This document shows, one piece after another, positions 25,175 through 25,678 of a DNA stretch of 64,000 bases. A model generated the notes under the pieces. The model made no database searches and was not told where the DNA came from. It saw nothing but the letters and a program-made list of their open reading frames with translations. This stretch comes from Escherichia phage Ecwhy_1: the sequence record MH791411.1; one strand, 5' to 3'. The translations under genes were made by a program, and so were the position numbers. Positions within the stretch are counted from its first letter, which is position 1. Every line of letters begins with the position of its first letter.

Positions 25175-25678
25175 TTATTTTACTTTGACAGTACAGGTTA
25201 CCTTCTTACCCTGGAATTCAACTTTCTGGACATACGTTACGTTACCCAAACGACTAACGAATGATTCCATTGCATCAACGTTGTTTTGGATAACAGTTGC
25301 GTTTGTGCCGCGACCTGTGGTTTTCATTACAATGTGTACTTGCTTACCTTCTTCTAGGAACTTACCTGCACTTTTCGCTTTAATAAGCAAATCATGCTCT
25401 TGAGTTCCGAAGTTGAATTGAATCTCTTTAGTACTAACAGTGTTTTGACGCTGTTTCTTCAGAGAGGCTTTTTCAGCCTGTTTCAATTCGTATTTGAATT
25501 TGTTCAGATCAGTGATTTTAACAGCAGGTTCATCACCTGCTCCAATAACCACCAAATCCAGACCTTCATTTTCTGCTAAAGCAAGTGCTTTAGAGATTGC
25601 CATGACTTCACTTTTACCTTCCGTAACTAAACGAACAGTTTTTGCGGTGATTTCGTTATTGGCAATAATAGATTTCAT
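25175..25678 (-). CDS. infC: translation initiation factor IF-3 homolog
   Basis: both IF3 domains recognisable: [40 protein letters not shown]...[14 protein letters not shown] and [31 protein letters not shown]... versus E. coli IF3 as recalled from memory. Confidence 0.8.

Follow-up and report, generated by a model that had tools for sequence, protein, structure and literature searches.

Several jumbo phages are known to carry a gene for translation initiation factor IF3. Phage CBB 'possesses its own IF-3', with homologues in GAP32, 121Q, PBECO4 and Rak2 (PMC5259590), and Iyer et al. noted IF3 together with a KTSC protein in 'group 2.2' jumbo phages, suggesting that the two serve ribosome rescue or the support of phage translation (PMC7824862). 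According to the paper on phage Sharanji, the function of IF3 in phages 'cannot be definitively stated' (PMC11895373). Annotated IF3 genes of the Asteriusvirus and Rak2-like phages are EcMJ_399, 121Q gp47, GAP32_313, CBB_318, Sharanji WNN14575 and those of PBECO4 and K64-1. Our literature searches, outside which most subscription-journal papers lay, found no biochemical or genetic experiments on any phage IF3. In older work, phages were reported to alter the initiation factors of their hosts, for example through phosphorylation by the T7 kinase. The same logic, a phage-made component of 30S initiation that redirects host ribosomes, has been proposed for translation genes of huge phages, bS21 among them (Al-Shayeb 2020; Mizuno 2019); bS21 itself belongs to the structure of the ribosome, whereas IF3 is a transient factor. 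The phage IF3 gene is thus already known, being annotated and discussed in papers from 2017 to 2025, and its treatment as a discovery in an earlier note on the DNA analysed here does not stand.

We analysed a window of 64,000 nucleotides from Escherichia phage Ecwhy_1 (MH791411.1). Positions 24000-27000 of the window share 99.9% DNA identity with Escherichia phage vB_Ec-M-J (Asteriusvirus, 378 kb), 98-99% with fEgEco12, WPEC3/5, BF17 and CMSTMSU, and about 85% with 121Q and PBECO4; these matches to Asteriusvirus jumbo coliphages bear out the phage origin assumed in the earlier note. That note had placed an IF3 homolog with both domains at 25175-25678 and gave no strand. The coordinates are correct, and the gene lies on the minus strand, with the following features:

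25175..25678, minus strand: IF3 (infC-like) coding sequence, 167 aa, with an ATG start and a TAA stop (ORF list and sequence)
25508..25678, minus strand: IF3 N-terminal domain, residues 1-57 (Pfam IF3_N, AlphaFold2 secondary structure, Foldseek)
25433..25507, minus strand: Lys-rich helical linker, residues 58-82 (AlphaFold2 helix 58-78, alignment; linker pI 10.1)
25178..25432, minus strand: predicted C-terminal 30S-binding domain, residues 83-167 (Pfam IF3_C; target TM 0.82 to 1tig)
25310..25324, minus strand: KTTGR, residues 119-123, the counterpart of E. coli 129-RFRGR-133 (HMMER and MAFFT alignments)

The open reading frame is a genuine two-domain phage IF3, with a match far beyond chance, on which Pfam, TIGR00168, phrog_9787 and Foldseek all agree. 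Both Pfam profiles that the note had proposed as a check score above their curated cut-offs: IF3_N (PF05198) covers residues 7-71 with 59.6 bits (E 3.3e-16; cut-off 26.9) and IF3_C (PF00707) covers residues 82-165 with 47.2 bits (E 2.2e-12; cut-off 34.8). The NCBIfam infC equivalog TIGR00168 gives 101.7 bits (cut-off 60), and residues 1-167 fall on positions 1-167 of the 168 in phrog_9787, 'translation initiation factor' (E 1e-66). Significant sequence matches in the PDB are solved IF3 structures only, including E. coli IF3 (8jsg_A, 1.3e-16), and the motif strings quoted in the note reappear in the HMMER alignment to this chain. An AlphaFold2 model built on 31 homologues (mean pLDDT 83.6) has an alpha/beta N-domain, a long helix at residues 58-78 and a beta-alpha-beta-alpha-beta-beta C-domain. 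The top 25 Foldseek places in the PDB for this model are all IF3 entries; Thermus IF3 on the 30S subunit (5lmn_X) aligns with a TM of 0.71 (E 4e-13), and isolated IF3 N- and C-domains reach target TM values of 0.76-0.82 (1tig 0.82, 6o6d 0.82).

The protein is 100% identical to EcMJ_399 of vB_Ec-M-J, annotated 'translation initiation factor', and 89.8% identical to 121Q gp47. The IF3s of Asteriusvirus and Rak2-like phages are the same gene with nothing different about them, and the motif analysis below applies to all of them. The phage protein and E. coli IF3 (InfC; 8jsg, 5me0) have in common two domains, a Lys-rich linker, the fold and a similar pI (9.45 vs 9.54); the phage protein differs in being only 30% identical, in lacking the N-terminal tail (E. 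coli residues 1-9) and in a linker longer by two residues. Since the IF3s of E. coli, Geobacillus and Thermus, from different bacterial phyla, are about 55% identical to one another, the 30% identity indicates that the phage gene is not a recent capture from the host.

The gene was found in about 90 phage records (93 by tblastn), of which the convincing ones are nearly all Rak2-like jumbo phages; the hosts of the IF3-bearing jumbo phages are Escherichia, Klebsiella, Salmonella, Cronobacter, Erwinia, Yersinia, Serratia, Pectobacterium and Vibrio. We rejected the reading of weak tblastn matches in the phage collection as wide independent acquisition, because at least one of them is bacterial contamination: the record CAKLQF020000017.1, labelled 'Acinetobacter phage MD-2021a', is bacterial DNA carrying a thrS-infC chromosomal locus. 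A Staphylococcus record that matches IF3 (OR844993.1) is flagged UNVERIFIED_ORG. We also discarded as spurious a 1611-aa protein with 14 'IF3-like' stretches, which is a repetitive Ig-like or tail protein. Phage-type IF3s labelled 'Escherichia coli' and 'Salmonella enterica' at NCBI lie on contigs of 359 and 371 kb, which are most likely jumbo-phage genomes deposited within bacterial assemblies.

Phage IF3 is under strong purifying selection, with a dN/dS of 0.07 against the 121Q orthologue (dS 0.81); the two genes downstream of it give 0.12 and 0.03 in the same comparison. Its surroundings are conserved as well. The gene order is DHFR, RNase H, Dda/PIF1 helicase, two small ORFs, IF3, a ClpS-like gene and a KTSC gene, and this order or its core was seen in 121Q, GAP32, one metagenomic contig and Vibrio phage 2.275.O, where IF3 identity to the window is 54% for GAP32, 54% for the metagenomic contig and 38% for the Vibrio phage. 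The immediate neighbours are:

25748..25942, minus strand: conserved 64-aa ORF of unknown function, directly upstream of IF3 (phrog_15132, 1.3e-37)
24616..25161, minus strand: 181-aa protein with a divergent ClpS domain, its start 13 nt past the IF3 stop (phrog_15940; synteny)
23996..24541, minus strand: KTSC-domain protein, 181 aa, third gene of the block (Pfam PF13619 at 6.2e-14; synteny)

The 64-aa ORF occupies the same position in 121Q, GAP32, the Vibrio phage and the metagenomic contig. The 523-aa protein at 22435..24006 on the minus strand, called 'virion structural protein' in a relative, has a sub-threshold match to Pfam MA3, a domain of the eIF4G/PDCD4 type (E 0.0078; 16.6 bits vs a cut-off of 23.2), which is probably due to chance.

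The ClpS assignment comes from the family. A profile built from four phage homologues matches ClpS in the PDB (E 9e-14), and all four members match Pfam ClpS at E <= 0.1, the best at 2.4e-18; the window protein alone reaches 15.6 bits, below the Pfam ClpS cut-off of 23, and single-sequence Pfam and PDB searches with it gave nothing significant. It has extra N- and C-terminal segments. The putative N-degron pocket, which in E. coli ClpS we take to be N34-D35-D36, reads D-D-P in the window protein, and N-D-D is kept in the Vibrio phage homologue.

The IF3 gene carries its own expression signals:

25723..25751, minus strand: predicted perfect sigma-70 consensus promoter, TTGACA, 17-nt spacer, TATAAT (12/12 match)
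25689..25692, minus strand: Shine-Dalgarno (SD) core GGAG, 10 nt before the IF3 ATG (read from the sequence)

The -35 hexamer of this promoter overlaps the stop codon of the upstream 64-aa ORF. Three perfect consensus matches were observed in the window where 0.18 were expected by chance; the other two (TTGACA, 16-18 nt spacer, TATAAT) lie at 2481..2509 and 7525..7553 on the minus strand. The IF3 promoter is perfect in 121Q and near-consensus in GAP32 (TTGACT-17-TACAAT). The closest annotated relative has a 21.5-kb terminal-repeat region, taken as the early region by analogy with CBB (PMC5259590), in which a perfect-consensus promoter precedes 11 of 53 genes and one with at most two mismatches precedes 31. 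Judged by these sequences, consensus promoters point to early transcription by the host RNA polymerase. The predicted 38-nt IF3 leader is unstructured (MFE -1 kcal/mol, weaker than shuffled sequences), and Rfam searches gave no match anywhere in the window. Because the ClpS-like gene starts 13 nt past the IF3 stop, with no predicted minus-strand terminator in between, the two genes are likely to be co-transcribed.

In bacteria, infC stands in a thrS-infC-rpmI-rplT operon, and the host gene is autorepressed through its unusual AUU start codon. The phage gene shows neither feature: instead it has an ATG start, a promoter of its own, and the 64-aa ORF and the ClpS-like gene as neighbours. With an AUG start it should therefore escape the start-codon autorepression of host infC. 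The discrimination of IF3 against AUU is illustrated in PMC9723500.

To compare function-linked residues, we aligned the phage protein with the IF3s of E. coli, Geobacillus and Thermus and 174 other family members (the E. coli reference is 100% identical to 8jsg_A). The following are kept, from E. coli to phage: R25 as R16, R66 as K54, D69 as D57, Y75 as Y63, D106 as D96 and K110 as K100, as well as the basic residues at 112, 116, 129 and 168 and the pair G132-R133 (phage K102, K106, G122-R123 and K158). R16, K54, Y63, D96, K100, G122 and R123 are invariant or nearly so across 26 sequences of the phage clade. R25, invariant in bacteria, and R66 contact the elbow of the initiator tRNA (PMC9723500); Y75N is a fidelity and RbfA-release mutant and K110L a non-binding mutant (PMC7145577). 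Y70 is L across the clade. R99 is replaced by N, T, S or A and R147 by S, A or N (S in the window), both positions being variable in bacteria too.

The motif 129-RFRGR-133 is highly conserved in bacteria, and its R131 contacts nucleotides +2 to +4, the start-codon region (PMC11775629). It is not intact in the window, where KTTGR replaces it (F130 to T, R131 to T), followed by G in place of E134. Position 131 is V, A, T, S, Q or I and never basic in 26 of 26 clade sequences, and is R or K in 122 of 152 other IF3s; position 130 is T, A, I, L or Q across the clade, and position 134 is mostly G. Among other jumbo phages, the motif reads KMQGR in GAP32, RLHGR in the Vibrio phage and canonical RFKGR in Sinorhizobium phage Phosso. 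R131P promotes initiation on non-AUG codons and leaderless mRNAs as well as by initiator tRNAs without the three G-C pairs; in mycoplasmas P, F or Y stands in place of R131, and a swap to the mitochondrial KKGK relaxes discrimination and lifts the inhibition of leaderless mRNAs (PMC11775629). Given the loss of F130 and R131, phage IF3 probably proofreads less stringently than its host counterpart: it is predicted from these residues to keep ribosome binding and domain dynamics while inspecting the codon less strictly. The absence of R131 might be made up for by a residue nearby. The degeneration of RFRGR goes without mention in the phage literature that we found on IF3, and is the only part of this analysis that may be new.

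The altered motif resembles that of mammalian mitochondrial IF3 (KKGK) and mycoplasma IF3, which also depart from RFRGR at R131. Mitochondria and mycoplasmas, however, use non-AUG starts, leaderless mRNAs or unusual initiator tRNAs, none of which was seen in the phage, and the terminal extensions of mitochondrial IF3 are absent from the phage protein. We counted coding sequences, starts and tRNAs in the record of the closest annotated relative (OQ718158) rather than in the window itself; an ungapped comparison of the two has 27,414 mismatches, which come from indels outside the region studied. ATG opens 249 of 255 sampled coding sequences of the relative (87/89 in the window equivalent, 130/133 in the first 50 kb and 32/33 around the tRNA cluster), which rules out an enrichment of non-AUG starts, and an SD-like core lies upstream of 204 of the 255. 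Across the 53 terminal-repeat genes, each of the 31 upstream promoters with at most two mismatches stops 20-56 nt short of the ATG, so that those mRNAs have leaders and leaderless mRNAs are ruled out for that region. As side observations, the annotation of the window equivalent in OQ718158 divides the large terminase into two parts (A and B) and shows 'DNA polymerase' as several separate fragments; it also lists several genes for the co-chaperonin GroES and, among the replication genes, one for tellurite resistance.

The window has no tRNA and the relative five, in a cluster that we located through a coordinate from the fEgEco12 paper. Its tRNA(CAT) (OQ718158 293575..293653) has paired G1-C72, C11-G24 and C4-G69/C5-G68, and C-G rather than G-C pairs in the anticodon stem. 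Compared with the E. coli reference tRNAs, it is closest to tRNA-Ile2 (60/79) and farthest from tRNA-fMet (43/79). These elongator or Ile2-like features rule out an unconventional phage initiator tRNA that would match a lenient IF3; the tRNA is annotated tRNA-Met(CAT), but probably decodes AUA in a lysidine-dependent way instead of serving as a Met tRNA. Canonical starts together with a non-initiator tRNA(CAT) indicate that the phage relies on canonical start signals and on the initiator tRNA of its host. With about 98% AUG starts and with leaders in front of its genes, the phage has no evident reason to lower stringency.

These counts bear most directly on the proposal of the earlier note that the role of the phage IF3 is to promote initiation on phage mRNAs that are leaderless or begin at non-AUG codons. 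The loss of F130 and R131 throughout the clade gives the idea some indirect life, as changes in this motif do promote such initiation (PMC11775629). The phage genes themselves mostly contradict it, through their ATG starts and SD-like cores, the leaders behind the terminal-repeat promoters and a tRNA(CAT) that is not an initiator, and we regard it as very unlikely. The one example that the note offered, a TTG start at 29424, is an artefact of an ORF track that takes the first ATG, GTG or TTG after a stop: an in-frame ATG follows six codons downstream, at 29442, and looks like the better start of the gene at 29424..30104 (plus strand). The relative starts this gene at a TTG equivalent to 29484, truncating a hydrophobic N-terminal segment. 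That the gene is a passenger, recently captured from the host and without a role in the phage, might be entertained because several weak 'phage' database matches are really bacterial DNA, like the thrS-infC locus described above; it is effectively excluded by synteny and selection, namely the fixed position in phages whose IF3s are only 38-54% identical and the low dN/dS, as well as by the distance from E. coli IF3 and the conserved consensus promoter of its own.

Two further explanations were weighed. One is ribosome mobilisation in slow or stressed hosts, where IF3 would split idle 70S or 100S ribosomes or free RbfA from silenced 30S subunits. It draws on the displacement of RbfA from mature 30S by IF3, which needs Y75 (PMC7145577), kept in the phage as Y63; on the ribosome-rescue or translation-support role suggested by Iyer et al. 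(PMC7824862); and on an S30EA/HPF-family protein that the related phage Sharanji also encodes (PMC11895373). We consider it possible but unlikely as a separate explanation: it overlaps our preferred reading, differing mainly in the physiological condition in which the gene would matter, and the consensus promoter argues for expression in every infection. The other is a competitive inhibitor or decoy that would occupy the IF3 site on the 30S, or bind another partner together with its ClpS-like neighbour, and so shut down host translation. The low identity to the host factor, the altered functional loop and the tight linkage to a ClpS-domain gene would suit such a role, but both domains, the linker and most function-linked residues are kept under strong purifying selection, and if the IF3 site were blocked in general, the translation of phage mRNAs, which use the same SD and AUG signals, would stop as well; the decoy is therefore highly improbable.

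The neighbourhood invites a broader reading. In Vibrio phage 2.275.O the core from the helicase to the KTSC gene is kept, with an inserted gene for ribosomal protein S21 immediately behind IF3 (3515..3760 of our locus L004); in the 469-kb phage Phosso, IF3 stands directly after a Clp ATPase gene (1155..2414 of our locus L009) and near a topoisomerase gene. The placement of IF3 beside S21 or a Clp ATPase in distant jumbo phages suggests that IF3, the 30S platform and Clp proteolysis are repeatedly connected; more speculatively, it hints at a larger module for initiation and proteostasis. IF3, the ClpS-like protein and the KTSC protein could form one functional unit that re-equips the host 30S, with a lenient phage IF3 and with Clp-dependent proteolysis or the KTSC protein removing or displacing a host initiation component. 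We think this quite unlikely; if it were true, control of initiation would pass from host to phage.

The reading that we favour, with moderate confidence, is that selection maintains the gene for a working phage IF3, which supplements or takes the place of the host factor on 30S subunits and is probably less stringent. Its observed basis is homology, fold, selection, the promoter and SD sequences, and synteny. Unmodified host sigma-70 RNA polymerase would transcribe the gene early and abundantly from the consensus promoter, and translation would begin at an AUG behind an unstructured, SD-bearing leader, free of infC-type autorepression. The C-terminal domain would then bind the platform of the host 30S, and the phage protein would supply the anti-association and initiation-rate functions of IF3; at 30% identity to E. 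coli IF3, its binding to the E. coli 30S is an assumption. In this way a large pool of initiation-competent 30S subunits could stay available as phage mRNAs surge over the long course of a jumbo-phage infection. With its degenerate inspection loop, the protein would add IF3 capacity without stringency, so that the extra IF3 may be harmless to weaker start sites.

Should the phage IF3 prove active on the ribosomes of E. coli, it would offer a virus-supplied initiation factor in a tractable system, since host and phage can both be grown and manipulated. Phage translation factors have been widely catalogued, and the degenerate RFRGR motif provides a concrete hypothesis, that phages may tune the fidelity of initiation.
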